From: Candidatus Omnitrophota bacterium
GTDB taxonomy: Bacteria > Omnitrophota > Gorgyraeia > JABMRN01 > RBG-13-46-9
Direction of reading: 5' to 3'
DNA: 64,000 nt
NCBI GenBank assembly: GCA_013203315.1
Contig: JABMQJ010000012.1
Location: 1-64,000 of the forward strand
Shown here: in pieces, positions 19,582-44,816 of the stretch
How positions within the stretch are numbered: position 1 is the first letter of the stretch
Layout: each line of letters begins with the position of its first letter
Position numbers and translations under genes: made by a program
Notes under the pieces: model-generated
The model's database searches: none
Seen by the model: only the letters and a program-made list of their open reading frames with translations
Told to the model about the DNA's origin: nothing

Positions 19582-21051
19582 ATGCCCTGGACAAAAACGC
19601 AACTCAACGAATCAATTAAGAAAATTATAGGCGATAGGCTGCTTATTATCGCATCCAACAGGGAACCCTATATACACACCTATAAAGAGGGTAAGGTTGA
19701 GTATATTCGGCCGATCGGCGGCGCTGTTACGGCATTGGATCCTGTTATGAGGGTTACCAAGGGAACGTGGGTAGCCTACGGAAGCGGAAATGCCGACAAA
19801 GACGTTGTAGATAAGAAGAACGAAGTAAAAGTCCCTCCCGAAAACCCCAAATATAAACTGAGAAGAATATGGCTCTCTAAGGACGAGGAAAACGGTTACT
19901 ATTATGGGTATTCCAACAAAGCAATGTGGCCGCTTTGCCACATGGCTTATACAAGGCCCGCTTTCGACGATGTAGACTGGGCTTACTATAAAATCGTAAA
20001 CCAGAAATTCGCCGACACGATTCTTGATATCGTCAAGGACCAAAAGGCCTTCGTGTGGATACAGGATTATCATCTTTTGCTTTTGAGTAAACTTTTGAAG
20101 GAAAAAAACAAGAACCTGATTACCGCTCACTTTCTTCATATACCATGGCCCAATCCCGAAGCATTCCGCATATGCCCGCAAAAAAACGAGATACTTGAAG
20201 GGCTTCTGTCAAATAACCTTTTGGGATTTCACATAAGGTACCACTGCAGTAATTTTATGGAGACCGTTAAGCTGGAAATGGAGGCAAGGATTGACACCGA
20301 AAGGACATCCGTTGTTTACGGGGGGCACGAGACGCTTGTGAGGGCATTTCCTATAAGCGTGGATTTTGCGGAAATATCCGAGCAGGCCGAATCAAAAGAA
20401 GTTAAAAGCGCGATGAAAAAATTAAGGCACGAATTTTCGATAGAAAATGACGTTTTTATCATGGTCGGCTTAGACAGAATAGATTACACAAAAGGCATAG
20501 TTGAGAAGATTAGGGCAGTGGACCGTTTCTTCGAAAAATTTCCCGAATATAAAGGCAAGGTCACGTTCATTCAAAAGGGTGGCTTGAGCAGAATGCATAT
20601 ACCCGAATACAAAGAGCTGAACGATACCCTAAACAGGTTGGTAGAGGAAGTAAACTGGAAGCATTCGACCGAAAAGTGGTACCCGATTTTACTTATCAGG
20701 CGCCACATGTCGAGAACAGGGATCATTGCTTTATATAAGATGGCAAACGCGTGCCTGGTGAGTCCCTTGCACGACGGAATGAATCTGGTCTGCAAAGAGT
20801 TTATAGCGACGAAAAACGATTTAAACGGCGTTTTAATCTTGAGCCAGTTTACCGGCGCAGCCAGGGAACTGGACGATGCGATATTCGTAAATCCTTACGA
20901 CAGGGAGAATTTCGCCATAATGCTGAAAGAAGCCGTAGAACTTCCCGATTCAAAAAAGAAAAAAAGGATGAAACGCTTAAGAAGCGTCGTAAAGGAAAAT
21001 AATATTTACAAATGGGCGGGAAAATTCTTAGAAGAATTAAAAAAGATTTAG
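19582..21051 (+). CDS. otsA: Trehalose-6-phosphate synthase (GT20)
   Basis: SNREP, WIQDYHL, FLHIPWP, DRIDYTKG, DGMNLVCKEF, LSQFTGAA. Confidence 0.93.
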   Translation: MPWTKTQLNESIKKIIGDRLLIIASNREPYIHTYKEGKVEYIRPIGGAVTALDPVMRVTKGTWVAYGSGNADKDVVDKKNEVKVPPENPKYKLRRIWLSKDEENGYYYGYSNKAMWPLCHMAYTRPAFDDVDWAYYKIVNQKFADTILDIVKDQKAFVWIQDYHLLLLSKLLKEKNKNLITAHFLHIPWPNPEAFRICPQKNEILEGLLSNNLLGFHIRYHCSNFMETVKLEMEARIDTERTSVVYGGHETLVRAFPISVDFAEISEQAESKEVKSAMKKLRHEFSIENDVFIMVGLDRIDYTKGIVEKIRAVDRFFEKFPEYKGKVTFIQKGGLSRMHIPEYKELNDTLNRLVEEVNWKHSTEKWYPILLIRRHMSRTGIIALYKMANACLVSPLHDGMNLVCKEFIATKNDLNGVLILSQFTGAARELDDAIFVNPYDRENFAIMLKEAVELPDSKKKKRMKRLRSVVKENNIYKWAGKFLEELKKI

Positions 21052-21806
21052 CGGCACGAATTAAGGGCGCGAAAAGAGTAATATTTTTCCTGGATTACGA
21101 CGGCACGTTAGTCCCCATCAAGAAGAGACCATCCCTCGCCAAAATTCATAAAAATACAAAAAACCTCCTTAAGAAACTGGCAAATACTCCTCCTGCAAAA
21201 ATTTTCATCATAAGCGGCCGCTCATTAAAAGACGTAAAAAAGTTGGTCGGCATAAAATCCCTCTACTATATAGGCAACCACGGCATGGAACTCGAGGGCC
21301 CACGCTTAAAATACGTAAACAAATCAGCAAATGCTTTAAAAACTTTTATGCAAAAAAGTTGCCAAATGCTGAAAAAGAGGGTACACTTAAGAGGTGTTGT
21401 TTTAGAAGACAAGACTTACACCTTGAGTTTGCATTATAGACTGGTTGATCCGGGTAAGGTGAAGGCCCTAAAAAAAGTTTTTTTTGAAACATTAAAGCGC
21501 GCTAAAAGTGAAAAAAAGATAAAGGTTACCGAGGGCAAAAAAGTCTTAGAAGTCCGGCCGAATATAAAGTGGGATAAAGGAAAAATATTAAATCAGGTTT
21601 TAAGAGGCATGGGGCAAAAAGGCACCTTGGCTATTTGTATAGGCGATGATAAGACGGACGAAGATGCCTTTAGGGCGCTCGGGAAAAAGGGAGTAAGCAT
21701 AGTCGTTTCGAGAAAGTCCAGAAAAACACGAGCGCAGTACAGGCTAAAATCTCCGAAGGAAGTTTTGAATTTATTAAAATGGTGCAGGCATGAACTGGTG
21801 GACTAA
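21012..21806 (+). CDS. otsB: Trehalose-6-phosphate phosphatase (HAD)
   Basis: FLDYDGTL, ISGR, GNHGME, VLEVRP, GDDKTDEDAF. Confidence 0.93.
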   Translation: MGGKILRRIKKDLAARIKGAKRVIFFLDYDGTLVPIKKRPSLAKIHKNTKNLLKKLANTPPAKIFIISGRSLKDVKKLVGIKSLYYIGNHGMELEGPRLKYVNKSANALKTFMQKSCQMLKKRVHLRGVVLEDKTYTLSLHYRLVDPGKVKALKKVFFETLKRAKSEKKIKVTEGKKVLEVRPNIKWDKGKILNQVLRGMGQKGTLAICIGDDKTDEDAFRALGKKGVSIVVSRKSRKTRAQYRLKSPKEVLNLLKWCRHELVD

Positions 21807-22467
21807 AAAATCATCGAATCCTTTTCAATTTTACACGAGCGTTAAGCTAAGAGAGGTAACGGGGAGAAAAGCCCGTACATTGCGGGAGCTTGTGGAAATT
21901 ATAAAAGAGGTTTCGGGCTCGGTCATATATTATCATACACACGTTTTTCTGCAGAGGCATCAGAACATTTCACCGGAACCGCCGAACGATTTCGCGTTTT
22001 GGGTGTCATCTACTTTGGGGGAGAACAAATTAAGCGAGGAATTGGCAAGCATAGATATATGCGAGTTTAGCACTATTCGTGAGCTTAGAGAAAGAATAAT
22101 AAAAACAATAGAAAATCATTTATTCGAAACAAAAGAGCCCCAGAGATATGCGTTGCAGGGAAAAGAATTCGAGTTTATAAAAGCTCACAGCATTGTCATG
22201 CCTGCCGGTTTTACGGCGCATAACCTTAAAGAATTCGCGACAATCCTGGAGAAGGTTACCATTCATTCGATATATTTTCATATATTTGAGGCAAGATTAA
22301 GGCTGGAGAAAGCCGTCAATGACTTTGCATTCTGGATAGGTACTTCGGTAGGCTCTCCGGAGCTTGCAAAGATTATCGAATCGCTCGATCCTTATACGTT
22401 TACCGGAGAGGGTTTGAGGCGGGAATTGATAAAGATCATAAACGATTGGTGTACCACGCATAAATAA
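21790..22467 (+). CDS. Internally duplicated TreT-associated protein (OrfY/DUF5752-like)
   Basis: Two repeats of A-x-x-L-x-E...IY(Y/F)H...NDFAFW...L...LR...I; sits directly upstream of treT. Confidence 0.75.
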   Translation: MNWWTKKSSNPFQFYTSVKLREVTGRKARTLRELVEIIKEVSGSVIYYHTHVFLQRHQNISPEPPNDFAFWVSSTLGENKLSEELASIDICEFSTIRELRERIIKTIENHLFETKEPQRYALQGKEFEFIKAHSIVMPAGFTAHNLKEFATILEKVTIHSIYFHIFEARLRLEKAVNDFAFWIGTSVGSPELAKIIESLDPYTFTGEGLRRELIKIINDWCTTHK

Positions 22468-22478
22468 TAGGGCCTAAA

Positions 22479-23696
22479 ATGAAAATAGCGGATTACGAGA
22501 AATTAGTAGGTAAGGACATAATTTACGAACTGACGCTTCTTGCCAAGAAACTTAAACGAAAGAAGATACAGTGCATAAATTCCACGCGTGTTGGCGGCGG
22601 CGTCGCGGAAATACTTTCCCGGCTCATTCCTCTTTTAAACGATTTGGGAATTGACGCCACATGGGACGTGATAGCCGCGGACACCGATTATTTTAATGTA
22701 ACCAAGGCTTTTCATAATGCCTTGCACGGCAGAAAAGTCGACATCAATCAAAGCATGTTTGATAAGTTTTTGAGCACCGGGAAAAAGATTTTAAAGGATA
22801 CTAAAATATACGGCGATATCGTTTTTGTTCACGATCCGCAGCCAATGATGCTGGTAGATGCGAAGAGCAGGGGAAATAAATGGCTCTGGCGTTGCCATGT
22901 TGATGTCTCGCGGCCTTACCCGGAAGTGTGGGAATTTTTGCGCAAGTACATAGAAAAATATGACAGCTCGATATTTTCAAGCCCAAAGTTTGCCAGTAAG
23001 CTCGATATTCCGCAGTTTTTAGTGGCGCCTTCCATAGATCCTTTTAGCGAAAAAAATAGAGACCTCACTAAAACCGAAATTGACACCGCCCTTGCAAGAT
23101 ACGGCATCGAAAGGGATAAGCCTATAATAACCCAGGTATCAAGATTTGATTATTTAAAGGATCCTGTCGGCGTGATAGATGCGTATAGGCTTGTTAAAAA
23201 ATATATAGATTGCCAGCTTATCTTAGCCGGAAATGAAGCCGCCGATGACCCGGAAATGGACATGGTTTATAAGGATATTATGCAGCACAAGGGCGACGAC
23301 CCGGACATACATGTGCTATTAATAAAACCGGAAAATAACGACCTTGACGTAAATGCCATCCAACGCGCAAGCGCTGTGGTTATCCAGAAATCAATAAGGG
23401 AAGGATTTGCCCTTACCGTAACAGAAGCTCTTTGGAAGGAAAGGCCTGTTGTCGCCTCAGCTGTCGGAGGAATTCCGCTACAGATAAGCCACGGACATAG
23501 CGGCCTTTTATGCCACACAGTCGGAGGAGCAGCCCTCCATATAAGGGAGCTTCTTCATAGCCCCGAGTACGCCAGACAGCTTGGTAAAAACGCCAAAGAG
23601 CATGTCCGGCGTAACTTCTTATCCACCCGCCACTTACGTGATTATATGATGCTCTTCCTCTATCTCTACAACCCCCAGGACATTATTTACCTCTAA
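22479..23696 (+). CDS. treT: Trehalose glycosyltransferring synthase (GT4, TreT family)
   Basis: NSTRVGGGVAEIL, TKAFHNALHG, HDPQP, WRCHVD, QVSRFDYLKDP, QKSIREGFALTVTEALWK. Confidence 0.88.
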   Translation: MKIADYEKLVGKDIIYELTLLAKKLKRKKIQCINSTRVGGGVAEILSRLIPLLNDLGIDATWDVIAADTDYFNVTKAFHNALHGRKVDINQSMFDKFLSTGKKILKDTKIYGDIVFVHDPQPMMLVDAKSRGNKWLWRCHVDVSRPYPEVWEFLRKYIEKYDSSIFSSPKFASKLDIPQFLVAPSIDPFSEKNRDLTKTEIDTALARYGIERDKPIITQVSRFDYLKDPVGVIDAYRLVKKYIDCQLILAGNEAADDPEMDMVYKDIMQHKGDDPDIHVLLIKPENNDLDVNAIQRASAVVIQKSIREGFALTVTEALWKERPVVASAVGGIPLQISHGHSGLLCHTVGGAALHIRELLHSPEYARQLGKNAKEHVRRNFLSTRHLRDYMMLFLYLYNPQDIIYL

Positions 23697-28427: not shown

Positions 28428-29438
28428 ATGAAAAAGAATAAAACACGAAAAAGAAAACCGCGTGAAGATCAAAATAGCTATAAAGTAGTTATTTCTGATT
28501 TAGGCATGAGCCCGTTTCGCATTATGCGCGCCTCTTTTGTGTTAATGGGCATACTTCCGCTTCTTATCATCTTCTACATAATCGTAGGACGCAAATTTCT
28601 TTTTGATATTTTTCTGGGGACCAACGGCCTGATAGCGTTTTTTGCTGTCATGATCTCGCTCATAGGATTTGTGTATGCTTACACTCTTATTGCGAATATG
28701 ATAAGAAAACTAGTCGTGTATTCTGCCGAACGCAAGCAAATAGACGAGGAGAAAACCGAACTACTTCTTGCGGTAAGCCATGATTTAAAAACACCTTTAA
28801 CCATACTTAAAACGGGAATGCGTAATCTCACCGACGGTATCGGTGGGGCTCTAAGCAAGGTTCACGTCGGAGTGGCCGATCACTGCCTTCGCGCCGTGGA
28901 CAGGATAAACCGTTTTATAGATGAACTTTTGGACTTCTCCAAGGTGGGTTTCATGAGAACGAATATAAAGCGCGACCTGATAGACCTCGGCGAAATGGTA
29001 AAGAATGAGGTAGATGCGATGTCTGATCTTGCCAGAGAGAACGGGCAGGATCTTCGGGTTAAGATTGAGGCCAAAGACGCAAAAGTATGGGCTGACGAGA
29101 AAAAAATGTCAAGAGCGGTCATGAATCTTCTTTCCAACGCCATAAAATATACCCCGAAGGGCGGCAAGATTAACGCGACGGTATCCACTGATGAAAATAC
29201 CACGAGATTCACGCTAATAAATACCGGTCCCGGAATTCAGCCAAACGAATTAGATAAAATATTTAAAAAATACGAAAGGCTTGACAGGCATTCCGATGTA
29301 GAAGGCACGGGGCTTGGGCTTTCTATCGTAAAAGAAATAATGGATTTACACAAAGGCCGCCTAACCGTAAAAAGCGAACCCGGCAAAGAGACAGAATTTG
29401 ATCTAATTCTACCCAGAGACTTACGAGAACGAGTATAG
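28428..29438 (+). CDS. Membrane histidine kinase with two closely spaced TM helices and no extracytoplasmic sensor
   Basis: SHDLKTP H-box, NLLSNAIKYT, NTGPGI (G1 Asp replaced by Asn), GTGLGL. Confidence 0.9.
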   Translation: MKKNKTRKRKPREDQNSYKVVISDLGMSPFRIMRASFVLMGILPLLIIFYIIVGRKFLFDIFLGTNGLIAFFAVMISLIGFVYAYTLIANMIRKLVVYSAERKQIDEEKTELLLAVSHDLKTPLTILKTGMRNLTDGIGGALSKVHVGVADHCLRAVDRINRFIDELLDFSKVGFMRTNIKRDLIDLGEMVKNEVDAMSDLARENGQDLRVKIEAKDAKVWADEKKMSRAVMNLLSNAIKYTPKGGKINATVSTDENTTRFTLINTGPGIQPNELDKIFKKYERLDRHSDVEGTGLGLSIVKEIMDLHKGRLTVKSEPGKETEFDLILPRDLRERV

Positions 29439-29462
29439 CGATAGCAGAAAGGCTATCTCCAT

Positions 29463-30473
29463 ATGGAAAGGGTAAGATACCAGATAGACCCGCATAATAG
29501 GCTCGTTATCCGGAAAGCTGCCAGAAAAACACCCCTTCCGTATTTTAGAAAAGTCCTGACAGGCCGTTTTAAAATCGATAACGATAATGAGCTCACCTAC
29601 CACGTAAAAACTCCCGTCCCGCATGGCAAAAATATTCCTCATCAGGTAAAGCTAAGAGGGCAATGGTCAGTAACAGATGATCATAATCTCCGTCTTACTT
29701 TTGACAAATGGGGAAGGGAGACTTTCGGCGATCGGCTTACCATAAAAGGCGATATCGTAGACACGAGTAAAAATTCATTCCTCTTTGCAATCACTACAAA
29801 AACAAAAGAAAATACCCGCTCAACATATATACTTAGACTTCAAGGGGTATGGCAGGCCGATAAAAATAACCGTCTTACATTTAGGATAACAAAGGAGGAT
29901 GGTAGGCATGATATTCTGGTATTAGACGGTATCTGGGAAATAAATAAAAACTATCAGATTATTTATAAATACGAAAAGGCGCATCTTGTAAGAAAACGAA
30001 AAAAACTTCACACCCTTATTTTTAAGGGCTATTGGGATATCTCCGGAAAAAAGCGTATATCATATATAATTGACGCAAAATCCGGTTCCGTGTTTAACTT
30101 TAAAACCGGCCTTGACATATTCAGGGCCGGTTATGTAAAATATGAACTAGGTGTAAAGCTCTCATACAGCCCTAAACCGGTTAAGCGCAAGATTACTCTT
30201 TCCGGTGCCTGGAAGATTAAGAGAAATCTAGGGCTTGTATTCGAAATGGCATACAAAAATCAAAAACTTCACGCCATAATTTTCGGCGCCGAAGCAAGAT
30301 TGACGGCAAGAGATATGGTATCTTTCAGGCTTAGAAATGAATTAAATAAAGACATGGGCGTAACCTTAAAGCTGTCGCATAAAATATTAAAAGGGGACGG
30401 CGAGGCTTTTTTAAAATTACTTAGGTCGAAAAAAGAATGCGCCGTATTAGCAGGTTCGGGGTGGAAATGGTAA
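29463..30473 (+). CDS. Hypothetical basic protein built of about 10 beta-hairpin repeats
   Basis: Long ORF with RBS AGAAAGG; repeated (L/I)-x-(L/F)-x-G-x-W-x-I-x3-N-x-L-x-(F/Y) units; C-terminal Trp; no signal peptide. Confidence 0.8.
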   Translation: MERVRYQIDPHNRLVIRKAARKTPLPYFRKVLTGRFKIDNDNELTYHVKTPVPHGKNIPHQVKLRGQWSVTDDHNLRLTFDKWGRETFGDRLTIKGDIVDTSKNSFLFAITTKTKENTRSTYILRLQGVWQADKNNRLTFRITKEDGRHDILVLDGIWEINKNYQIIYKYEKAHLVRKRKKLHTLIFKGYWDISGKKRISYIIDAKSGSVFNFKTGLDIFRAGYVKYELGVKLSYSPKPVKRKITLSGAWKIKRNLGLVFEMAYKNQKLHAIIFGAEARLTARDMVSFRLRNELNKDMGVTLKLSHKILKGDGEAFLKLLRSKKECAVLAGSGWKW

Positions 30474-31207
30474 CTAAGCTTGCCGCAGCGGTAATCGTCG
30501 TTATGCTAACCTACGCGCCAAGTATAATTGCCGATACAATTATACTTAAAAATGGCGAAGAAATAGTAGGAAACGTGGTTAGTGAATCCGGCGAAGGTGT
30601 AGTAGTAAGCAAACAGGGCGGAAGCTTTGTATATTCAATTTCAAAAAATAGAATAAAAAACATAAGAAAATCAACCCCGGGGGAAGAAGCCTGGCAGGAG
30701 AAAAAAGAGGGGCGTTTCTACAAAACGGATAAGAAAAATATTTCCGAACAAAAAAGCAAGTGGAAAGAATACCGTTTATCGGAATACAAAAAAGAAGTGA
30801 TTGCAGCAGATCGTGCCCAGGGCAGAATGCGCGTTCATTTTACGAATAATAAATTTGGCGTTGTGGATGTGGTTCTGAATGATAAAATAAGGGCCTCGCT
30901 TTTCGTTGACACGGGTGCTAGTTTTGTATCGATTTCCGAGAAAACAGCCGGAGACCTAAAGATTGACTTAGGGTCGCTTCCGAAGATCAAGCTTATACTC
31001 GCAAACGGAAGCGAGGTAGAGGGGTATTCTACTACGCTCGATTCAGTCGAAGTCGGCAATGCCCGCATCGAAAATGTTAAAATCGCTATACACAAGATGT
31101 CTGACTCCGGCAAGGTAGACGGCCTCCTCGGCATGTCCTTCCTGAAGCACTTCCACGTAAAACTTGATTCACAAGAGAACTGTCTCATCCTCGAAAAATA
31201 CCAGTAA
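30467..31207 (+). CDS. Exported clan AA (retropepsin-like) aspartyl protease
   Basis: Signal-peptide-like N-terminus, DTIILKNG small domain, catalytic VDTGAS, ANGS flap, GLLGMSFL. ATG 30467 overlaps the upstream stop. Confidence 0.85.
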   Translation: MVTKLAAAVIVVMLTYAPSIIADTIILKNGEEIVGNVVSESGEGVVVSKQGGSFVYSISKNRIKNIRKSTPGEEAWQEKKEGRFYKTDKKNISEQKSKWKEYRLSEYKKEVIAADRAQGRMRVHFTNNKFGVVDVVLNDKIRASLFVDTGASFVSISEKTAGDLKIDLGSLPKIKLILANGSEVEGYSTTLDSVEVGNARIENVKIAIHKMSDSGKVDGLLGMSFLKHFHVKLDSQENCLILEKYQ

Positions 31208-31351: not shown

Positions 31352-32866
31352 ATGCCTGCAACAGTAGATATAAGAAACCAATTTAAGACTTTTGTAGCCA
31401 ACCGTGGCGGCCTATATTTTAAGGACCACGACCTAAAGAACCTCGAAAGCGCTATCTCCGCACGAATGAAATCCCGCGGAATGCATTCATTTCCCGGATA
31501 CTATGCATACCTTACAACCGCCGAAGAGAAAGAAGATGAGTTCAGAGAACTCTTAAATCTTCTAACGATAAACCACACATACTTCTTCAGGAACGAACCA
31601 CAATTCAAGGCTCTGAGGGAAAAGGTTTTGCCCAATGTGATTGAGAAAAAACGACAAGAAGCAAGCGCATCAGGCGAGGAAAAACCCGCGTTACGCATAT
31701 GGAGCGCCGGTTGTGCGACAGGACAGGAGCCATATTCAATTGCAATGATAGTGCGTGATCTTATAGAAGACATAGATGATTGGGACGTACAAATACTCGC
31801 CACTGACGCGTCCGAAAATGCATTACAGAATGCACGAAAAGGCACATATAGCCAGAACTCGGTAAAGCATGTTGATGAAACGCGCCTCGCGAGATATTTT
31901 ACAAAAGAAGGGAATACCGAGCGCGATACAAAATACCGGATACAGGAAAACATTAGAAGAATGATTAATTTTGCCTTTTTCAATCTCATGGAGGAAAGTT
32001 TCCCTACGGGTTTTGATATCATATTTTGCCGCAACGTTGTCATATATTTCGAATTTGAAACAACTGTAAAGGTTATGAATAAGCTTTATTCCGGCCTTTT
32101 AGACGGCGGTTACATGTTCATAGGCTATTCCGAAACGCTTCAATTCATGCAGGACAGGCTTCAGATGATAAGTTGGGAAGACGCGATATATTATCACAAG
32201 GCCAAAGGAAAAGCACCTGTTTATACGGAATTCGCCGAACCCCTGCCTGCTAAAGAGGAGATAGATCTAGATAAGGTCCTGGAAGAAATCTCAAAGGCAG
32301 AAGCCACCGCGAACTTAGAGGCCGAGACAAAAAAAGCGCCGCCTACTCAAAAAATAGAGAATATGCTCATTCAGATTATTAAAGCCATGCACCTAAAGCA
32401 ATACGACAAGGCCCTCTCACTTATTGAAGAAGCAAGTTCAGTGGACGATAAAGTGGTCGACCCTCATTATCTGGCGGCCGAGATTTTTATAAACCAGGGA
32501 AAAAGAGGCGAGGCAAAGACAAGGCTTTCTACCGCGCTAAAACTCGATTCGCTTTTCGCGCCGGCGCATTATCTTTATGGTTGTATATACGTGGAGGAAA
32601 GCGATCTTGATAACGCGAAAAAAAGTCTGAAAAAAGCCTTATTCATAGATAAAAATTTCTTATTGGCGCATTTTTATCTTGCTCAGGTTTTCAAAACCGA
32701 GGGACGCACAAAGGATGCGATCAGGGAATACAGAAATAGCCTGAAACTCTTGTCCGGGGCTGCGCCCGGAGATATTATAGCCTATAGCGGCGGGTTTAAT
32801 GCTGCTACATTCATGAGTGTTTGCAGGGATAATCTGGAAAGACTAAAAATAGAATACGGAGATTAA
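31352..32866 (+). CDS. cheR: CheR-type protein-glutamate methyltransferase with C-terminal TPR repeats (WspC/FrzF-like)
   Basis: TYFFRN, RIWSAGCATGQEPYSIAM, FDIIFCRNVVIYF, IGYSETL; TPR-like AHYLYG and AHFYLA helices. Confidence 0.9.
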   Translation: MPATVDIRNQFKTFVANRGGLYFKDHDLKNLESAISARMKSRGMHSFPGYYAYLTTAEEKEDEFRELLNLLTINHTYFFRNEPQFKALREKVLPNVIEKKRQEASASGEEKPALRIWSAGCATGQEPYSIAMIVRDLIEDIDDWDVQILATDASENALQNARKGTYSQNSVKHVDETRLARYFTKEGNTERDTKYRIQENIRRMINFAFFNLMEESFPTGFDIIFCRNVVIYFEFETTVKVMNKLYSGLLDGGYMFIGYSETLQFMQDRLQMISWEDAIYYHKAKGKAPVYTEFAEPLPAKEEIDLDKVLEEISKAEATANLEAETKKAPPTQKIENMLIQIIKAMHLKQYDKALSLIEEASSVDDKVVDPHYLAAEIFINQGKRGEAKTRLSTALKLDSLFAPAHYLYGCIYVEESDLDNAKKSLKKALFIDKNFLLAHFYLAQVFKTEGRTKDAIREYRNSLKLLSGAAPGDIIAYSGGFNAATFMSVCRDNLERLKIEYGD

Positions 32867-32868
32867 TT

Positions 32869-33048
32869 ATGAAACTAACAGTATTTACTCTGAAAGATAA
32901 GGAATACGGAGTTGACATGATGGTAACGGCTTCAGCCGACGCAGTGGACGCAGTAAAGGCAAGAAAAATGGGCGCGGACGATTATTACGCAAAGACGAGC
33001 GACTTATCCATTTTAGTCAAAGCTATAAAAAAAATAACTGAAATATAA
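32869..33048 (+). pseudogene. 59-aa chimeric remnant: CheW N-terminus fused to a receiver-domain C-terminus
   Basis: Translates to MKLTVFTLKDKEYGVD-MMVTASADAVDAVKARKMGADDYYAKTSDLSILVKAIKKITEI; below the ORF-track cutoff. Confidence 0.7.
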
Positions 33049-33062
33049 AAAAACACTTAAAT

Positions 33063-36000
33063 ATGGAAAAGCAAATCAAACATAAGACTAGCTTGAGGCG
33101 AAAAATCGCGTTTCTTATTGTATTTTCCTGTCTTATCGTTATGCTTACAGGTTTTGGGTTGGGGTATTTATGGGGATTCAATTTGTTGCGTACTACAATA
33201 GGCGAAAGCCATGTCAGCATGGCCGATTTAATTTCAGAATCTGTTAGCAGAATTCTCAACGAAGAAGTCTCGGATCTTCACATATACATGTCGCTTCCGT
33301 TACGCAGGGGCATGATTGAAAAGCAAAATCTCAAATATAGAGGAATGAATGAAGAGGCCGTTAGCAGATATTTTAAAGATATGGACGAAAAGTGGAAAGG
33401 GACACAAAAAGACAATCCTTTGATCGAAGAATTGTTAGCGACAGAAACCAGCAACAGGTTGAAAAGCTTAGTAGCCGGAGATGCCGGTATTGCAGAAATT
33501 TTCATGACTGATGTGCAAGGAGGGTTAGTCGCTTCCTCAAACAAAACAAGCGATTTTTACCAGGCAGACGAAATCTGGTGGCAAAAAGCTTTTAACAACG
33601 GAAAGGGCGCTGACTTTATCGGGGATGCAGAACTTGATACGTCGTCTAATGTAATAAGCATAAGCTTAGCCGTCCCCATAAGAGGCGATTCAGGAGAAGT
33701 GATAGGTGCCTGCAAGGCTGTCATGGATGTGAACCGTTTGTTTGAGCCCTTAAAAGATTTTGTTATCGGAAAAACAGGTCATGCAGTGTTGATTAACAAA
33801 AAAGGCGTTATCATTTTTCAAGAGGACATCACACCTTTAAGCCAAAGCCTAACAAGCGAAGAAAATTTGCAAAAAATATTAGAAACCCCAAAAGGGTGGA
33901 TAATTACAAGCAAACCTAACGAGCATAACAAAAAAACATTTATTGCGTTCACGGCAAGCAATTACTCTCTCTTTTTGCGAGAAGGGATACTGTGGAAGGT
34001 ATGCGTAGGCCAAAATGCCGATGAAGTGTTTGCGCCATTGAATACTTTAATGTTTCAGCTTTTTATAGTTGTCATTCTTGCCGCCGCAATTCTTGTTTTG
34101 GCTAGTGCGGTGTTTAGTGCAGCGTTCATTAAGCCGCTAATTGAGCTTCGCAATGCTACGGAGAAAATCGCGAAGGGTGATTTAGACTACCATATAGAAG
34201 TAAAAACGGGCGACGAAATCGAAGAATTTGCCGATTTTTTCAACCGGATGACTGACGAGTTAAAAAAATCTACTAGATCCGTCAGTGCGCTAAATAAAGA
34301 AATCACCGAGCGTAAGAAAGTAGAATATGCACTTAAAGAAAGCGAGGAAAGATATAGAGTGCTGTACGATTCCTCGCGCGATGCCATTATGACATTGATG
34401 CCCGGGGGGAAATTTTTAAGCGGCAATCCTGCTACATTAGAAATGTTTGGGTGCAAGGATGAAAAAGAATTTATTTCTAAAACCCCAGCTGATTTATCAC
34501 CGGAATATCAACCCGATGGGGAACTTTCTAGCGTAAGAGCGAAGCAGATGATGGACATGGCAATGGAAAAAGGTTCGCACTTTTTTGAATGGACGCATAA
34601 GAACGTAGGCGGAAAGAATTTTTTCGCTACAGTATTATTGACCCGAATGAAAATGGGAAATAAAGAATTTTTGCAAGCGACAGTCCGTGATATTTCCGTG
34701 TCTAAGAATATAGAGACTAAAGTAAGGCAAGCAGCAGAAGAATGGCAGCGCACATTTGATTCGATAGCGGATTTGGTATTTATTCAGGATACGAATTTCG
34801 TTATACTGAAAGCAAACAGGGCGTTTGCCGAAGCGATTAAAATGAAACCCGAAGACATTATCGGCAAAAAATGTTATGATTTATTGCATGGTCGGGATAA
34901 GCCATGGCCAAACTGTCCGTTTGAAAAAACAAAACACGACTCGAAGGCCCACACCGAAGAGGTGGACGACCCAAATATTGGCCTACCACTTTCGGTTTCA
35001 ACTTCGCCGATATTTGACAAAAAAGGTAAATTGGTGGGCAGCGTGCATATTGCCCAGGACATAAGAGCCAGAAAGAAAGCAGAGAAAGTCTTTCAGGACA
35101 CAAAAGACGAATTGGAAAAACAGACCTGGGGGCTCAGAAAAAGCAACGAAGCCATCAAGTCTCTCTATAAAGAGTTGGAGGGAAGCAATAAAGAACTCCA
35201 GAAGTTGGACCAATTAAAATCCGATTTCGTGTCAACCGTTTCACACGAATTACGCACGCCGCTATCTATAACTAAAGAAGGCATATCCTTGGTCCTGGAT
35301 AGGGTAACCGGTGATATTAGCGGAAAACAGGAAAAAATACTCTCTACGGCAAGGGATAACATAGATCGCTTAGCTCGAATAATAAATGACCTACTTGATA
35401 TATCCAAAATCGAAGCAGGCAAGGTCGATTTGAAAAAAGCCCTCGTGGATCTTTCAGGTAAGATAAAGGACGACTGCACATTATGGAAAATAGATGCGGA
35501 TAAAAAAAATCAAACCTTACAAATTTCCGTGCCGGATTCCCCGGTTAGCATTTATGTTGATCCTGACAAGATGGACCAAATTCTTCTTAATCTCGTATCG
35601 AATGCCGTAAAATATACCCCTGATAAAGGAAAAATAAAGGTTGAGTTAAAAGATAAAGAAGGCGAGGTAGAGGTTTCTATTTCCGATACAGGCGTTGGCA
35701 TTGCCAAGGAGGATTTTCATAAGTTATTCGGTAAATTTCAACAGTTCAGCAGGGCCATAGGCCCAGGGGCAAAAGGCACGGGGCTTGGCCTTGCCATTGT
35801 TAAGCAGCTTGTTGAAATGCACAAGGGTAACATACGCGTTGAAAGCGAGCTCCACAAAGGTAGCAAATTTATCTTTTCTATTCCCAAGCTGGATGTTGAA
35901 GAGGTGTTTAGGGAATATATTAGTAGCGGGATAAAACAGGCAGCCGATAGAAAAACGCATCTTTCACTTCTTATTGTGCACGTGGTGAATTTCAAGCAAA

Positions 36001-36311
36001 TTTTTGAAGAGCTGGGCTATGATAAGGCGCACGCTTTACTTAAGGACATTGCGAAAGAGACAAAGGGATCGCTGCGTCGCCGTGCGGATAGCGTGGTAAG
36101 AGATACGGGCGATCTTATTGTGCTTCTATTCGATACGCGCAAGGAAGATGTGGCGGTTGTGAGGAAGAGGGTTGAAAAAACAATTAGCGATTATCTATCC
36201 GGCGGCAAAGAAAAATTTCTTAAAAATATCAGCATAACTTTCGGTAACGCAACATATCCCGATGAGGCAATCACTGATGAGGAATTACTAAAAAAGGCAA
36301 GACCCGCGTAA
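33063..36311 (+). CDS. Sensor histidine kinase: TM-Cache-TM-HAMP-PAS-PAS-HisKA-HATPase-degenerate GGDEF
   Basis: Two TM helices around a Cache-like region (YQADEIWWQKA), HAMP (GDEIEE), two PAS/PAC, SHELRTP, NAVKYT, GTGLGL, and a GGDEF-fold tail with RRAD...TGDL. Confidence 0.88.
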   Translation: MEKQIKHKTSLRRKIAFLIVFSCLIVMLTGFGLGYLWGFNLLRTTIGESHVSMADLISESVSRILNEEVSDLHIYMSLPLRRGMIEKQNLKYRGMNEEAVSRYFKDMDEKWKGTQKDNPLIEELLATETSNRLKSLVAGDAGIAEIFMTDVQGGLVASSNKTSDFYQADEIWWQKAFNNGKGADFIGDAELDTSSNVISISLAVPIRGDSGEVIGACKAVMDVNRLFEPLKDFVIGKTGHAVLINKKGVIIFQEDITPLSQSLTSEENLQKILETPKGWIITSKPNEHNKKTFIAFTASNYSLFLREGILWKVCVGQNADEVFAPLNTLMFQLFIVVILAAAILVLASAVFSAAFIKPLIELRNATEKIAKGDLDYHIEVKTGDEIEEFADFFNRMTDELKKSTRSVSALNKEITERKKVEYALKESEERYRVLYDSSRDAIMTLMPGGKFLSGNPATLEMFGCKDEKEFISKTPADLSPEYQPDGELSSVRAKQMMDMAMEKGSHFFEWTHKNVGGKNFFATVLLTRMKMGNKEFLQATVRDISVSKNIETKVRQAAEEWQRTFDSIADLVFIQDTNFVILKANRAFAEAIKMKPEDIIGKKCYDLLHGRDKPWPNCPFEKTKHDSKAHTEEVDDPNIGLPLSVSTSPIFDKKGKLVGSVHIAQDIRARKKAEKVFQDTKDELEKQTWGLRKSNEAIKSLYKELEGSNKELQKLDQLKSDFVSTVSHELRTPLSITKEGISLVLDRVTGDISGKQEKILSTARDNIDRLARIINDLLDISKIEAGKVDLKKALVDLSGKIKDDCTLWKIDADKKNQTLQISVPDSPVSIYVDPDKMDQILLNLVSNAVKYTPDKGKIKVELKDKEGEVEVSISDTGVGIAKEDFHKLFGKFQQFSRAIGPGAKGTGLGLAIVKQLVEMHKGNIRVESELHKGSKFIFSIPKLDVEEVFREYISSGIKQAADRKTHLSLLIVHVVNFKQIFEELGYDKAHALLKDIAKETKGSLRRRADSVVRDTGDLIVLLFDTRKEDVAVVRKRVEKTISDYLSGGKEKFLKNISITFGNATYPDEAITDEELLKKARPA

Positions 36312-36338
36312 AGCACCCAATGCTTAAAAGGAGGATGA

Positions 36339-36713
36339 GTGGCAAAGATGAAAATACTACTTGTTGACGATGAGCCAATGTTTATCGAAATAATGAAAAC
36401 AAGGCTGGAGGCCGACGGCTGCGAGGTAATTACCGCTTCCGACGGAAAACAGGCGCTTGACAGGATAGCGCAAGACAAACCTGATGCGGTTTTGCTGGAT
36501 ATTCTTATGCCCGTATTGGACGGGATGTCTGCGCTTGAAATGATAAGAAAGAAGGATAAAGAATTACCCGTATACATGCTGACTGCTTTCTCGACCGAAG
36601 ATAGAATTAAAGAGGCAAAAAGGGCCGGCGCTTCCGGGTTCCTTGTTAAAGACGGTGAGTTGAAAGAAGAAATTGGCGGTATAGTAGATCAATTAAAGAA
36701 AAATAAATCCTAA
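36339..36713 (+). CDS. Single-domain response regulator 1
   Basis: VDDE, LLDILMP, MLTA, conserved Lys (LVK); GTG start after AGGAGG. Confidence 0.9.
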   Translation: MAKMKILLVDDEPMFIEIMKTRLEADGCEVITASDGKQALDRIAQDKPDAVLLDILMPVLDGMSALEMIRKKDKELPVYMLTAFSTEDRIKEAKRAGASGFLVKDGELKEEIGGIVDQLKKNKS

Positions 36714-36731
36714 CATGAAAAAGGAGGGTGC

Positions 36732-37115
36732 ATGAATAAGAAGAAAATCCTGATAATAGACGATGAAGTGGACCTGGTTGATTTAGTCAAGATGAGGCTT
36801 GAGGTGGCGAACTATTATGTGTTACCGCTTTATACGAGTACGCGCAGCCTCGAGATAGCGAAAAGAGAAAAACCCGACCTGGTTCTTCTGGATGTAATGA
36901 TGCCGGATAAAAACGGGTATGAGGTCTGCAAGGAGCTAAAAGCCGACGAGGCAACGCGCCATATCCCCGTAATTATATTTACCGCAAAACCTGAACAGAA
37001 AGAACGCATTAAAAAAGACGCTGAATTGGCCGGAGCCGATGACTACATCTTGAAACCTTTTGACCCGGCGGATTTAACTAAAAAGATCGAAAAACTCCTA
37101 AAAAAGGGGGTGTAA
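36732..37115 (+). CDS. Single-domain response regulator 2
   Basis: IDDE, LLDVMMP, FTA, KPF; RBS AGGAGG. Confidence 0.92.
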   Translation: MNKKKILIIDDEVDLVDLVKMRLEVANYYVLPLYTSTRSLEIAKREKPDLVLLDVMMPDKNGYEVCKELKADEATRHIPVIIFTAKPEQKERIKKDAELAGADDYILKPFDPADLTKKIEKLLKKGV

Positions 37116-37116
37116 A

Positions 37117-37494
37117 ATGAGTAAGAAAAGAATATTAGTCATTGATGATGAGTTGGAATTAGTGGCCATGCTAAAAATCAGGCTGGAAGCAAATAACTAC
37201 GAGGTTGTTACAGCAGGTGACGGCGAAGAGGGTATGGAAAAGGCTAAAACCGAAAAGCCGGACTTAATCATTCTGGACATCATGATGCCTAAAAAAGACG
37301 GCTACACATTTATTAAGGAAATGAGAACCGAGCAAGGTATAAAAAGTACGCCTGTTATCATACTTACCGCTAAGGCGAAAATGCAGGATTTGTTTGCAAT
37401 CGAAGGCGCGAAAGATTACATTGTAAAGCCTTTCGAAGCTACGGAACTCCTGGAGAAGATAGCAAGATATTTTAAGAATACAGGAAGCGAGTAA
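37117..37494 (+). CDS. Single-domain response regulator 3
   Basis: IDDE, ILDIMMP, LTA, KPF. Confidence 0.92.
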   Translation: MSKKRILVIDDELELVAMLKIRLEANNYEVVTAGDGEEGMEKAKTEKPDLIILDIMMPKKDGYTFIKEMRTEQGIKSTPVIILTAKAKMQDLFAIEGAKDYIVKPFEATELLEKIARYFKNTGSE

Positions 37495-37511
37495 AGAACC
37501 GGAGGGTGAAA

Positions 37512-37886
37512 ATGCCTGATAAAAAGAGGATCTTAATAGTCGACGACGAAATGCAATTGGTGGAAATGGTAAAGATACGCCTCGAGGCTAACGGCTACGA
37601 AACTTTAGCAGCTTATGACGGCCAGACAGGGCTGAATATGGCAAAAAAAGAAAAACCCGATTTAATCATATTGGATTTGATGATGCCCAAAATGGACGGA
37701 TATAAAGTTTGTGCCCTTTTGAAAAGAGATTCCAGATACTCAAAAATTCCCGTACTGATATTTACGGCAAAGGCGCAGGAAGAAGACGCAAAAATGAGCG
37801 AAGAAGCCGGTGCTGACGCATACCTTGTCAAACCCTTTGAACCGGAGGCACTACTAGGCAAAATAAGCGGATTATTGAAGGAGTGA
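37512..37886 (+). CDS. Single-domain response regulator 4
   Basis: VDDE, ILDLMMP, FTA, KPF; ATG 37512 after GGAGG. Confidence 0.92.
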   Translation: MPDKKRILIVDDEMQLVEMVKIRLEANGYETLAAYDGQTGLNMAKKEKPDLIILDLMMPKMDGYKVCALLKRDSRYSKIPVLIFTAKAQEEDAKMSEEAGADAYLVKPFEPEALLGKISGLLKE

Positions 37887-37888
37887 AC

Positions 37889-39583
37889 ATGGCAAAAAAG
37901 CAGAAAAAGTCCCTCGGTGAGAGCCTCGTGGACGAAGGTATCATAACTCAGGATCAGCTGAAACAGGCGCAGGCAGAAGAGAAGCGCGTGGGTCAGCGTT
38001 TACGTAAAGTGCTTGTTAAGATGGGGTTGATTGACGAAGGGGATCTCGTATCTTTTTTAAGCGACAAGTTGGGTGTGCCCAGGATAGAGCTTGGTAATTA
38101 TTTGATTGACGCGAAGATAATTGATTTGGTGCCCGAGGCGCTGGCCAGAAAACACGAACTTATTCCTGTATTTAAAATTGGGGATCGCCTTACGTGCGCG
38201 ATGCTTGATCCATGGAACATATTTGCGCTTGATGAGGTAAGAATGAAAACGCATTTAACGGTTGAGCCTGCTGTGGCGACAGAAGGCGAGATAAAGAAGG
38301 CCCTTAATCAATATTACAGCGCAAGGGGCAACATGGAAGACCTTATAAAAACTTTAGACCAAAAAGACCTGGGATTAGGAGAGGGTAAAGAAATCGACGC
38401 TAAAAAGCTACAGGGAATAGTGGAGGAGCCCATAGTAATAAGGCTTGTTAACATGATTATTTCAAAGGCCGTGCAGGAAAGGGCCAGTGACATTCACATT
38501 GAACCGGAAGAGAGCGTTCTTAAAACGCGATACAGGGTAGACGGCATGCTGCATGAAGCGCCGTCTCCGCCCAAGCACCTTCAATCTGCGGTGATATCGA
38601 GAATTAAAATAATGGCGGATCTCGATATTGCTGAAAGAAGGAAACCGCAGGATGGGCGTTTCAGCATTAAAATGGAAGGTAAACAGATAGATGTTCGCGT
38701 ATCCTGTATCCCCACCATATACGGAGAAAACGTTGTTTTGCGGCTTCTGGATACTTCGAGCACGCTTATTAGCTTGAAAGACATGGGATTCTCTAAAGAA
38801 GTGCTGGAAAAATACGAGAAGCTTGTCACGAGGCCGCATGGAATAATTCTTGTTACCGGGCCTACCGGAAGCGGAAAAACTACGACACTCTACGCCTCGC
38901 TCGATAAAATAAACACGGTGGAGAAAAATATCATAACAATTGAGGACCCGGTTGAATACAAGCTCGAAGGGATAAGGCAGACCCAGGTAAACCCCAAGGT
39001 TGACCTTACGTTTGCCAACGGACTCCGCTCTATACTGCGGCAAGATCCGGACATAATAATGGTAGGTGAAATGAGGGACTTCGAGACAGCTGAGATTGCA
39101 ATTCAGGCGGCGTTAACGGGCCACCTTGTTTTCTCAACGCTTCACACCAATGACGCCCCGGGCGCGGTGACACGAATGATCGATATGCGAGTCGAGACAT
39201 TTCTTGTATCGTCTTCGGTAATTGGCGTGTTGGCCCAGAGGCTTGTAAGAACAATATGCCTTGCGTGCAAGGAAAAATATCAGCCGACAAAAGAAGAGTT
39301 GAAAGATATAGGGCTCACGGGTGATGAGAAAATAGATTTCTATAGAGGCAAGGGTTGCGATAAATGCATGAAAACAGGCTACAAGGGTAGAATCGGTATT
39401 TTTGAACTTATGATGGTGGATGACGAGATAAAGAACTTAATCATTGCGAAAACAACAGCCGAGGAGATTAGGAAAAATGCCCTTTCAAAAGGAATGATAT
39501 CATTGCAGGACGACGGAATCGAGAAAATAAAACAAGGACGTACAACAGTAGAGGAAGTTCTGCGCGTAACCCAGGAGGAATAA
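37889..39583 (+). CDS. pilB: PilB/GspE-family assembly ATPase with N-terminal MshEN-like domain
   Basis: ASDIHIEP, PQDGR, GPTGSGKTTTLY, TIEDPVEY, LRQDPD, TLHTN, tetracysteine motif; N-terminal LGESLVDEG...RLRKVLVKMG. Confidence 0.93.
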   Translation: MAKKQKKSLGESLVDEGIITQDQLKQAQAEEKRVGQRLRKVLVKMGLIDEGDLVSFLSDKLGVPRIELGNYLIDAKIIDLVPEALARKHELIPVFKIGDRLTCAMLDPWNIFALDEVRMKTHLTVEPAVATEGEIKKALNQYYSARGNMEDLIKTLDQKDLGLGEGKEIDAKKLQGIVEEPIVIRLVNMIISKAVQERASDIHIEPEESVLKTRYRVDGMLHEAPSPPKHLQSAVISRIKIMADLDIAERRKPQDGRFSIKMEGKQIDVRVSCIPTIYGENVVLRLLDTSSTLISLKDMGFSKEVLEKYEKLVTRPHGIILVTGPTGSGKTTTLYASLDKINTVEKNIITIEDPVEYKLEGIRQTQVNPKVDLTFANGLRSILRQDPDIIMVGEMRDFETAEIAIQAALTGHLVFSTLHTNDAPGAVTRMIDMRVETFLVSSSVIGVLAQRLVRTICLACKEKYQPTKEELKDIGLTGDEKIDFYRGKGCDKCMKTGYKGRIGIFELMMVDDEIKNLIIAKTTAEEIRKNALSKGMISLQDDGIEKIKQGRTTVEEVLRVTQEE

Positions 39584-40803: not shown

Positions 40804-40821
40804 AAAGAGGGGGTGGCGAAA

Positions 40822-41031
40822 ATGGAAGTATTTCTAGGTATTGCTTCAATATTTTTTCTTATTTTTGGCGCGATGCTTTTGCTTTCACCGAATATCGTTG
40901 AACGAATTTCCAAAGCGACAAATAAGGTGCTTTTTAATCTGGATGACAAAATACAGTCTACGAGAAGACCCCTGGGAATTCTGCTATTGGCAATATCGAT
41001 TTTTTTATGGTATACTGCGCTACATAAGTAA
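40822..41031 (+). CDS. Small two-TM hypothetical membrane protein
   Basis: RBS GAGGGGG, two hydrophobic helices, fills the pilC-pilin gap. GTG 40813 is an alternative start. Confidence 0.65.
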   Translation: MEVFLGIASIFFLIFGAMLLLSPNIVERISKATNKVLFNLDDKIQSTRRPLGILLLAISIFLWYTALHK

Positions 41032-41046
41032 AAAAGGAGGCCAGGG

Positions 41047-41505
41047 ATGATGAAGAAGAAAGGTTTTACACTGATTGAGCTTTTAATTGTGATAGCGGTT
41101 ATTTCTATCCTGATTGGTATCGCGCTTCCGCGTTTCAGGGGCATGCAGGAAGAGGGTTTGGTTGCGCAGGCCAAGGGAGAGTTAAGGACGCTCCAAACAG
41201 CCATAGAAAGTTACTATATCCACAATAGCAGCGCCTATCCGACAGATAGTGCTACCTGGCAATCAGATACAGATAGCCTTACCACTGCTACCCCGCTAAT
41301 AGTAGGTACGGCTTTAATTGATCCGTTTTCCAGTGCAGGGGCGCAATATCAGCTGGTGTATGATACAAATACGGCTTATTATGCTATGTATTCAGTGGGT
41401 CCGGGCGGCACCGGGAGCGTTACCGCAGTTAGCACTGCCGGCGGTGTTACTGATACACCCAACTGCATTTATGTTTCGAACGGAGAAAGAGACACGACGC
41501 CATAA
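41047..41505 (+). CDS. Major type IV pilin / GspG-like pseudopilin
   Basis: Class III signal KKG|FTLIELLIVIAV with E5, strong RBS AGGAGG, GspG-like DPF...Y...YSVGPGG. Confidence 0.88.
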   Translation: MMKKKGFTLIELLIVIAVISILIGIALPRFRGMQEEGLVAQAKGELRTLQTAIESYYIHNSSAYPTDSATWQSDTDSLTTATPLIVGTALIDPFSSAGAQYQLVYDTNTAYYAMYSVGPGGTGSVTAVSTAGGVTDTPNCIYVSNGERDTTP

Positions 41506-41521
41506 TTTAAAGAGGGTACTT

Positions 41522-41878: not shown

Positions 41879-41879
41879 A

Positions 41880-43191: not shown

Positions 43192-43192
43192 C

Positions 43193-44797: not shown

Positions 44798-44816
44798 AGT
44801 AGCAACAAGGGGAGAC

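Follow-up and report, generated by a model that had tools for sequence, protein, structure and literature searches.

A new family of basic beta-hairpin repeat proteins from Candidatus Omnitrophota, with the sequence grammar of outer-membrane barrels and a probably soluble core

The window analysed in this study, a 64,000-nucleotide (nt) stretch of the genome of a Candidatus Omnitrophota bacterium (contig JABMQJ010000012.1 of assembly GCA_013203315.1, positions 1 to 64,000), contains at 29463..30473 a gene whose product poses a simple question: is a protein that follows the sequence rules of an outer-membrane beta-barrel, with amphipathic hairpins, alternating strands and a terminal aromatic residue, a membrane barrel at all? 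An earlier note, made from the letters of the DNA, had described this product as a beta-hairpin repeat protein of an unknown family, devoid of a signal peptide, and had considered that it might be a cytoplasmic barrel, a lipid-carrying groove or an unusually exported pore. We conclude that the protein has no Sec signal and is probably soluble rather than an outer-membrane barrel, the Gly/Trp/Leu/Phe face of its strands forming the core and the Lys/Arg face the surface. As to its role, we tentatively favour, at somewhat less than even confidence, the binding of a polyanionic surface by a polycationic beta-repeat protein that is soluble and keeps its Trp/Gly core buried.

The 336-amino-acid (aa) open reading frame (ORF) and all six peptides quoted in the earlier note were found in the translation, as were the C-terminal GWKW and the approximately ten repeats that it had counted. 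These repeats are amphipathic beta-hairpins of ~30 aa, with the pattern h-x-h-x-G-x-(W/F/I), a D/N-rich turn and h-x-h-x-h (h, hydrophobic residue). The recurring G-x-W motif is present five times (residues 66, 128, 156, 189 and 248), compared with ~0.5 occurrences expected from the composition, and eight hairpin units could be aligned by eye (anchors at residues 34, 66, 96, 128, 156, 189, 248 and 275; spacings of 27-59 residues). Comparison of the family profile with itself, using hhalign, aligned residues 3-89 with 127-212 (probability 98.1%, E 1.3e-13), 34-95 with 96-155 (E 4.7e-8) and 21-95 with 235-305 (E 2.6e-6), while a hidden Markov model (HMM) of the three-hairpin block 119-212 matched residues 5-87 (independent E-value, i-E, 5.8e-7) and 243-292 (i-E 0.0068). 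Since both the profile self-comparison and the block HMM reveal internal duplication, the protein is organized in a two-level hierarchy, in which homologous hairpins of ~30 aa are grouped into three-hairpin blocks of ~90 aa. The alternation of hydrophobic and polar residues is so strict that the protein ranks first by this score among the 971 ORFs of at least 200 aa in its own genome. It is also rich in basic residues (69 K+R, i.e. 20.5%, versus 32 D+E; net charge +37), and contains 23 G and 8 W.

A word-indexed protein search yielded 505 homologues at E 1e-3 or better, and an exhaustive HMMER search of 1.84 billion representatives yielded 441 clusters (50% identity) at the same threshold, 199 of which reach 1e-30. 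The members are about 250-340 aa in length; the best 120 homologues (323-359 aa) share 55-65% identity with the window protein over ~100% of its length, carry no precomputed Pfam domain, and are all named "hypothetical protein" by their sources. Nearly all of these 120 are labelled Candidatus Omnitrophica or Omnitrophota, with one labelled Syntrophaceae. A scan of species-representative genomes detected 15 loci, of which 11 are in metagenome-assembled genomes titled Candidatus Omnitrophota or Omnitrophica, the other four being automatically labelled "uncultured Planctomycetia" or "uncultured Planctomycetales". In a sample of 201 genomes spread evenly over the phylum, 93 contained a match, mostly a single one (82 of the 151 high-quality genomes; 75 of 138 genera). 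Presence follows lineage: in our numbering, the gene was found in 8/9 genomes of lineage f2, 4/4 of f7 and 14/17 of f13, and in 0/4 of f6 and 0/3 of f21. Some lineages have natural short forms, which begin at profile position ~64 or ~94 and thus lack one hairpin or a whole block. The source genome (1.5 Mb, 32 contigs, 97% complete) carries a single copy of the family, with no paralogue. One genome (G171; contigs C44, C29 and C84) contains three full-length copies plus fragments, and nearly all others contain one. The window stretch itself was found in four freshwater-metagenome DNA runs of one study. There was no match to the repeat protein in phage and plasmid collections (tblastn), or in IMG/VR by a pattern search, whose patterns reach close relatives only; nor were longer or fused relatives found among proteins of 589-2000 aa, which is weak evidence. 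To judge from these searches, the family is unnamed and, where the sources name it, belongs to Candidatus Omnitrophota.

Comparison with described families gave the same picture, as the earlier note had anticipated: no Pfam, NCBIfam or PADLOC family fits. The best Pfam match, DUF7926 (20.6 bits, E 5.3e-4), lies below the gathering cut-off of 33.5 bits, was seen below threshold in only one of the 106 aligned family members, and was matched in none of 101 genomes of the phylum, although the model did not ring in any control genome either. Other sub-threshold matches are scattered over the 106 members (DUF7840 in six, DUF5004 in two, Lipocalin_4 in two). NCBIfam gave nothing meaningful and PADLOC no match for the window protein; when the sequences of PDB chains were compared with the family profile, the best match was ZnuD (E 0.016 over 58 residues), and nothing was usable. 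The combination of a Gasdermin profile match with a conserved adjacent releasing protease, as in gasdermin-type pore-formers, was not found. As to AsmA/TamB-like proteins, the window protein and the 106 members gave no AsmA, DUF490 or DUF748 profile match, and no N-terminal membrane anchor was seen in 229 full-length homologues. MORN, choline/cell-wall-binding and YD/RHS proteins are soluble and built of short hairpins in which Gly and aromatic positions are conserved and the turns are of the D/N-x-x-N/G-R-L type. However, their repeats measure ~20-23 aa, compared with ~30 aa here, and none of them appeared in Pfam searches at E up to 1 or among the structural matches. A full-text literature search brought up no paper that describes the family. 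The passages concerned in 10.64898/2026.06.07.730766, PMC12324291 and PMC10066038 contain nothing on it, although lists of conserved hypothetical families might be given in the supplements.

The evidence that separates a barrel from a soluble protein begins at the N-terminus. None of 270 homologues has a signal-peptide-like N-terminus, defined as a hydrophobic 12-mer with a Kyte-Doolittle value above 1.8 within the first 45 residues, so that the lack of a signal peptide, already stated for the window protein, extends to the whole set (270/270). No membrane segment was detected either, the maximum 19-mer Kyte-Doolittle value across 229 full-length homologues being 1.65.

The second line of evidence is the pattern of conservation, which was compared in alternating windows between the hydrophobic and the polar phase; columns in which the top residue reaches a frequency of at least 0.8 were counted as near-invariant. 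In 30 sequences of the repeat family from the sampled genomes, the entropy was 1.29 bits for the hydrophobic versus 2.12 bits for the polar phase, with 27 versus 4 near-invariant columns, and a divergence-matched subset (median identity 32%) gave 1.55 versus 2.58 bits and 17 versus 2 columns. The BamA barrel from the same genomes (Pfam-verified Omp85) gave 1.41 versus 1.06 bits and 13 versus 22 columns. A second control resembling outer-membrane proteins (OMPs) gave 2.37 versus 2.27 bits and 3 versus 6 columns; this control (L087) has no Pfam family, and its OMP status is assigned by a signal-peptide-like N-terminus, alternation and a C-terminal Phe. The pattern is therefore inverted: the repeat family keeps its hydrophobic face, whereas the BamA barrel keeps its polar face. 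In the alignment of 106 sequences, G66, W158, G189, W191 and G248 are invariant, and W68, W130, W250 and several F, Y and L residues are conserved in at least 90%. With its invariant and near-invariant positions taken up by Gly, Trp, Phe, Tyr and Leu, the conserved face resembles a packed core and not a lipid-facing surface. Across the same genome sample, identity within the repeat family is 29-57%, as against 23-35% for the OMP-like control, which indicates that the repeat family evolves more slowly.

Charge provides a third distinction. The source genome has 13 tabulated OMP-like ORFs (signal-peptide-like N-terminus plus C-terminal F), 12 of which encode proteins with a net charge of -32 to +1 and 8-14% K+R, the 13th having +16. 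The net charge of the repeat protein (+37) contrasts with these values, and the medians of the family and of the genome are +30 and +9, respectively.

Structure prediction is in line with these observations. The AlphaFold2 model computed from the 106-sequence alignment is confident (mean predicted local distance difference test score, pLDDT, 87.5; predicted template modelling score, pTM, 0.84), except in the last ~30 residues, and contains 30 strand segments and one four-residue helix, in agreement with the meander of more than 20 strands proposed from the repeats. Several of the long strands break exactly at the G-x-W motifs. The core without the N-terminal block, modelled alone, is also confidently predicted (Table 1). 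Foldseek searches of PDB with the whole model retrieved only beta-propeller lectins and WD40-type proteins, with template modelling (TM) scores of 0.09-0.15 and root-mean-square deviations of about 20 A or more; searches of BFVD gave TM scores of 0.15 or less, and residues 91-336 found nothing in PDB at E 1e-3 or better. In these searches neither of the two confident models was superposed on a solved barrel, and no match above noise was obtained to LptA, LptC, TamB, FABP or lipocalin folds, all similarities lying below the level that the tool regards as meaningful. For residues 7-153 and 132-270, the top-ranking structures were double beta-sandwiches resembling pleckstrin-homology (PH) domains (e.g. 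the tandem PH domains of FACT Spt16/Pob3), which in the models indicate strongly bent antiparallel sheets. Since no described family accounts for the protein and the confident model matches nothing solved, it represents a candidate new fold; this novelty extends to the family and its predicted fold and not to the function. Homodimer prediction gave scores of 0.00 and 0.00, which we count neither for nor against any arrangement.

Mean-field direct-coupling analysis (293 sequences; effective number, Meff, 236) was too noisy to reveal the tertiary arrangement. Nevertheless, the successive hairpins emerge from the couplings, so that the antiparallel meander is confirmed as uninterrupted; beyond a separation of ~110 residues the couplings fall off.

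An unconventional membrane beta-barrel or pore-former is a first alternative. Such a protein would be inserted post-translationally without a signal, or would convert from a soluble form into a pore in its own, a host or a prey membrane. Its alternation score, first of 971, places the repeat protein directly above OMP-like proteins. With bacterial OMPs (porins, BamA) it has in common antiparallel hairpin repeats that alternate strictly, an aromatic last residue and a motif in which Gly pairs with an aromatic residue; the passages concerned in PMC6340704 and PMC5542473 describe OMPs as amplified beta-hairpins. The source genome does carry BamA. In the ESM Atlas, the family's own unnamed clusters score 0.98-0.99 and named clusters 0.87 at most; the nearest clusters named OEP24, Porin_3 and Porin_4 score 0.86, and these families sit on 50%, 22% and 22% of the cluster members, so we treat them as leads and not as evidence. 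Organellar barrels of the VDAC/Porin_3 and OEP24 types are basic, lack a cleavable signal, are inserted post-translationally and end in a C-terminal beta-signal, and in size they are similar to the repeat protein. Weak couplings of residue 92 with 333 and 334 could close a sheet, and the passages of PMC10066038 that bear on lifestyle propose that Omnitrophota are host-dependent. Against a pore stand the complete lack of signal-peptide-like N-termini among the homologues, the conservation of the hydrophobic face (the reverse of BamA), the G-x-W residues that are invariant in mid-strand, a charge opposite to that of the OMP-like proteins, and the lack of a PADLOC match and of a conserved protease partner. 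Unlike bacterial OMPs, the repeat protein is thus signal-less, strongly basic and conserved on its hydrophobic face, and its confident model was superposed on no solved barrel. We consider the barrel or pore improbable, and an outer-membrane or exported pore is not supported by the comparison. A related version, in which the protein is stored in a soluble form, its amphipathic sheets folded on themselves, and later inserts as a barrel or pore, seems slightly less probable still.

If the protein is soluble, as we favour, the following mechanism may be envisaged. The protein would fold in the cytoplasm with the conserved Gly/Trp-rich face of its strands packed inward, the Gly located two residues before each Trp, on the same face, leaving space into which aromatic side chains from adjacent strands could fit. 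The variable Lys/Arg-rich face would be exposed as a polycationic surface, and together with the conserved C-terminal tail it would dock the protein on the cytoplasmic membrane, at the face formed by acidic phospholipids, and the protein might serve there as a scaffold or a lipid-handling accessory. Of the 229 full-length homologues, 162 terminate in W and 60 in F, and the commonest endings are WRW (41), FRW (30), RRW (16) and WGW (16), IPF being also common. Tails of the Trp/Phe-Arg-Trp type are known to sit at membrane interfaces. Docking on a polyanionic surface by means of the basic beta-surface and this tail is possible, though slightly more doubtful than the binding of a polyanionic surface as such. 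Our choice of the acidic inner-membrane phospholipid as the surface is guided by the conserved tail and by the presence of lipid enzymes in the sole operon-like contexts of the gene (see below).

A number of observations weigh against this reading, and they are given here together. The C-terminal W or F of 222/229 homologues recalls the beta-signal of OMPs, which likewise ends in an aromatic residue, and the proteins at ranks 2-5 of the alternation score are OMP-like, each having a signal-peptide-like N-terminus and ending in F. The proteome of the source genome is basic overall, and within it the repeat protein ranks 23rd of 1318 in net charge and 32nd of 971 in charge density; because of this background its basicity is notable (top 3%) but not extreme. 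The inward orientation of the hydrophobic face is deduced from conservation statistics with two control families, and the binding of a membrane or another ligand is a proposal. Weak long-range coupling clusters, joining residues 43-58 with 293-302 and 71-94 with 314-336, have an offset of ~240 that differs from the best internal-homology offsets (+124, +62 and +214); they could reflect real contacts of the N-terminal block with the C-terminal hairpins, or noise. RNA data for the gene were looked for and none were found. Finally, the lipid and envelope theme of the gene neighbourhoods described next is a weak lead, as the counts have no background and related genomes are not independent.

The neighbourhood of the gene was surveyed in 83 other loci, as far as 3 kb on each side and further out in some. 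When the neighbours were clustered, the most widespread family, NAD-dependent epimerases/dehydratases, occurred in 11/84 loci, followed by an acyltransferase/AMP-binding cluster (6/84) and PLD-like proteins (6/84). Pfam annotation of 205 neighbours, with the outer genes of loci L031-L085 excluded, identified varied housekeeping genes and lineage-specific syntenies: (i) a SpoU methylase gene, the repeat gene and a UPF0047 gene, with CutA1 nearby, (ii) flanking polysaccharide deacetylases and (iii) sugar epimerases. One arrangement alone, that of lineage f7 (L061:2201-6428 and L072:2201-6574), has the look of a functional operon: there, the repeat gene is translationally coupled, by overlaps of 1-4 nt, to a Hydrolase_4 alpha/beta hydrolase gene upstream and to a gene for an 854-892-aa AMP-binding + Acyltransferase fusion downstream. 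We take the fusion protein to resemble Aas, the lysophospholipid-reacylating enzyme of E. coli.

These contexts suggest a second alternative, a lipid carrier or chaperone, which corresponds to the groove of the earlier note and in which the hydrophobic interior of bent sheets would hold acyl chains, lysophospholipids or another lipid for membrane enzymes. Besides the overlapping f7 operon and the six loci with the acyltransferase/AMP-binding cluster, alpha/beta hydrolase genes adjoin the repeat gene in L009, L019 and L059, and further lipid-type neighbours are scattered (PlsC-like proteins; PgpA together with a CDP-alcohol phosphatidyltransferase in L017, GpsA in L024 and AsmA in L018). A G-x-W with which a strand begins is also the signature of lipocalins, the up-and-down antiparallel topology of calycin/lipocalin-like proteins (Lipocalin_4, DUF5004) is present in the repeat protein, and one ESM Atlas cluster has been automatically named "lipocalin-like". 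On the other hand, lipocalins have G-x-W once per eight-stranded barrel, whereas the repeat protein has one roughly every 30 residues; no Pfam match to these families was obtained for the window protein, the sub-threshold matches of two members each are weak (best E 0.0036 and 1.2e-5), and the structural matches listed for the models, of little weight by themselves, include no lipocalin. The invariant Trp, Phe and Tyr of the hydrophobic face suggest a filled core and not a cavity, no lipid-binding fold was matched above noise, an AsmA-like membrane anchor is lacking, and most loci have no lipid gene nearby, the neighbour counts themselves being drawn from related genomes with no background. 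A lipid carrier is, in our estimation, unlikely, though a close competitor of the favoured reading, the one pointer to a groove being the weak lead from the gene neighbourhoods.

Equally unlikely, in our view, and likewise a close competitor of the favoured reading, is a nucleic-acid-binding scaffold, in which a periodic array of Lys and Arg would hold RNA or DNA phosphate backbones and the protein would be nucleoid- or RNA-associated. The net charge of the window protein and of the family, the ~30 alignment columns in which, by our count, half or more of the sequences carry K or R, the slow evolution and the cytoplasmic location expected because there is no export signal are all consistent with such a role, as are RNA- and translation-related neighbours at other loci (DEAD helicase, SmpB, an RF-1-domain protein, RNase_T, SpoU methylases, RRF, EF-P and truA). 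These neighbours are heterogeneous, however, none being present in more than 11/84 loci (truA in 3/83 other loci, all of one lineage), and the proteome as a whole is basic. Neither Pfam nor NCBIfam detected a nucleic-acid-binding family, the structural similarities lie below the meaningful level, and the conserved Trp/Phe tail at the C-terminus would have no obvious role in such a scaffold.

In the window, the gene is flanked by genes for a histidine kinase and a retropepsin-like aspartic protease. Further downstream are genes for a CheR-TPR protein, a Cache-HAMP-PAS-HK-GGDEF protein and four single-domain response regulators, followed by those of a type IV pilus (PilB, PilC, pilins, a PilX-like protein carrying a discoidin domain, PilMN and PilO). 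This arrangement raises the alternative that the repeat protein is a substrate or partner of the adjacent protease, or a component of the pilus such as an outer-membrane conduit. It is suggested by the overlap of the repeat and protease genes on the same strand (7-37 nt, depending on the protease start), which the earlier note had recorded, and by the absence of a secretin of its own from the downstream pilus locus. The latter observation was upheld, in that no Secretin domain was found among 25 scanned locus proteins, but its significance was not: two Secretin genes are located on other contigs of the source genome (G000 C8:8918-9406 and C14:29192-29701), so that the locus needs no substitute pore, and the linkage to the pilus is not conserved. 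None of four window neighbours recurs in 29 other loci (1.5 kb either side). Among the 83 other loci, a protease homologue is present in one, two genes upstream and not adjacent, CheR in none and histidine-kinase-like genes in two; a link to the protease is thus not supported. Only one pilus-related neighbour (MshEN + PilZ, in L018) was found among the 205 annotated. Moreover, the protease has a signal-peptide-like N-terminus and the repeat protein has not, for which reason different compartments would be expected. The adjacency appears to be a peculiarity of this genome, and a partnership with the protease or the pilus, now close to refuted by the missing conserved linkage, is very improbable.

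The soluble reading has consequences beyond this locus. To our knowledge, no isolate of the Omnitrophota has been cultured, and here a gene of no described family is carried by roughly one in two of the Omnitrophota genomes sampled. The repeat protein copies the sequence grammar of outer-membrane barrels, apparently for a soluble core, and is therefore both a warning to and a test case for sequence-based OMP predictors; as a candidate new fold, it is an attractive target for structure determination. If the pore reading were true instead, the family would bear on the origin of beta-barrel membrane proteins and on signal-less targeting. It could then be a bacterial counterpart of VDAC/OEP-type barrels, a new pore-former of host-dependent Omnitrophota, or a living example of the amplified beta-hairpin thought to be ancestral to outer-membrane barrels.

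The features of the gene and its two neighbours are summarized in Table 1. The start of the repeat protein is well delimited: the Shine-Dalgarno-like GAAAGG sits 10 nt ahead of the ATG, and in-frame stops lie 19-27 nt upstream of it. The TAG at 29442, which had been taken to preclude a missed signal peptide, was confirmed in the DNA and is accompanied by that at 29436-29438; because both are in frame directly upstream, a longer N-terminus is excluded. The histidine kinase and the repeat protein are each 336 aa long and are encoded in one reading frame, with TAG-CGA-TAG between them. A read-through fusion of the two across the TAG codons was considered and dropped, as homologues start at the same Met behind unrelated genes; for the same reason the equal length and frame are regarded as a coincidence. 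At the 3' end, the overlap with the protease gene is 37 nt if the protease starts at 30437; the true overlap is probably 7 nt (ATGGTAA), with the protease start at 30467, which yields the signal-peptide-like N-terminus MVTKLAAAVIVVMLTYAPSIIA. The N-terminal part of the protease scored 36 bits against the Leptospira-type N-terminal domain NF047433, below the cut-off of 43.

Table 1. Positions of the beta-hairpin repeat protein gene, its parts and its immediate neighbours in the window
Feature	Position	Strand	Remarks
Beta-hairpin repeat protein ORF	29463..30473	+	336 aa plus TAA stop, ATG start; read from DNA, family conserved
Upstream boundary: histidine-kinase TAG 29436-29438, second in-frame TAG 29442-29444, GAAAGG 29447-29452	29436..29452	+	Read from DNA
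N-terminal three-hairpin block, residues 1-90	29463..29732	+	Residues 3-89 align with 127-212 (hhalign, E 1.3e-13); absent from natural short forms
Core, residues 91-336	29733..30470	+	Confident AlphaFold2 model alone, pLDDT 86.6, pTM 0.80
G-x-W motif 1, G66-Q-W68	29658..29666	+	G66 invariant, W68 at least 90% (106 sequences)
G-x-W motif 2, G128-V-W130	29844..29852	+	Both residues at least 90% (106 sequences)
G-x-W motif 3, G156-I-W158	29928..29936	+	W158 invariant (106 sequences)
G-x-W motif 4, G189-Y-W191	30027..30035	+	Both residues invariant (106 sequences)
G-x-W motif 5, G248-A-W250	30204..30212	+	G248 invariant, W250 at least 90% (106 sequences)
C-terminal aromatic tail G-W-K-W	30459..30470	+	W/F also terminal in most full-length homologues
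Histidine kinase (HisKA + HATPase_c), upstream neighbour, outside the feature	28428..29438	+	Pfam scan
Retropepsin-like aspartic protease, downstream neighbour, outside the feature	30437..31207	+	Pfam gag-asp_proteas, E 2.5e-18

Several other regions were recorded in passing. A chemosensory-style region precedes the type IV pilus set (window positions 31352-45344); it encodes a hybrid protein with the domains Cache-HAMP-PAS-HisKA-HATPase-GGDEF and four tandem response regulators (36339-37886). A minor pilin of the PilX_N type (42340-43191) carries an F5/8 type C domain (discoidin, galactose-binding-like; E 4.1e-18), and this domain content suggests that it may be a lectin-tipped pilus adhesin. 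A trehalose cluster is located at 19582-23696 and encodes an OtsA-like GT20 protein, a trehalose phosphatase, a DUF5752 protein and a TreT-like trehalose synthase. Outside the window, the same genome contains a 16,610-aa ORF (G000 contig C25:60779-110608), which agrees with the passages concerned of bioRxiv 10.64898/2026.06.07.730766, where very long proteins are reported from Omnitrophota.

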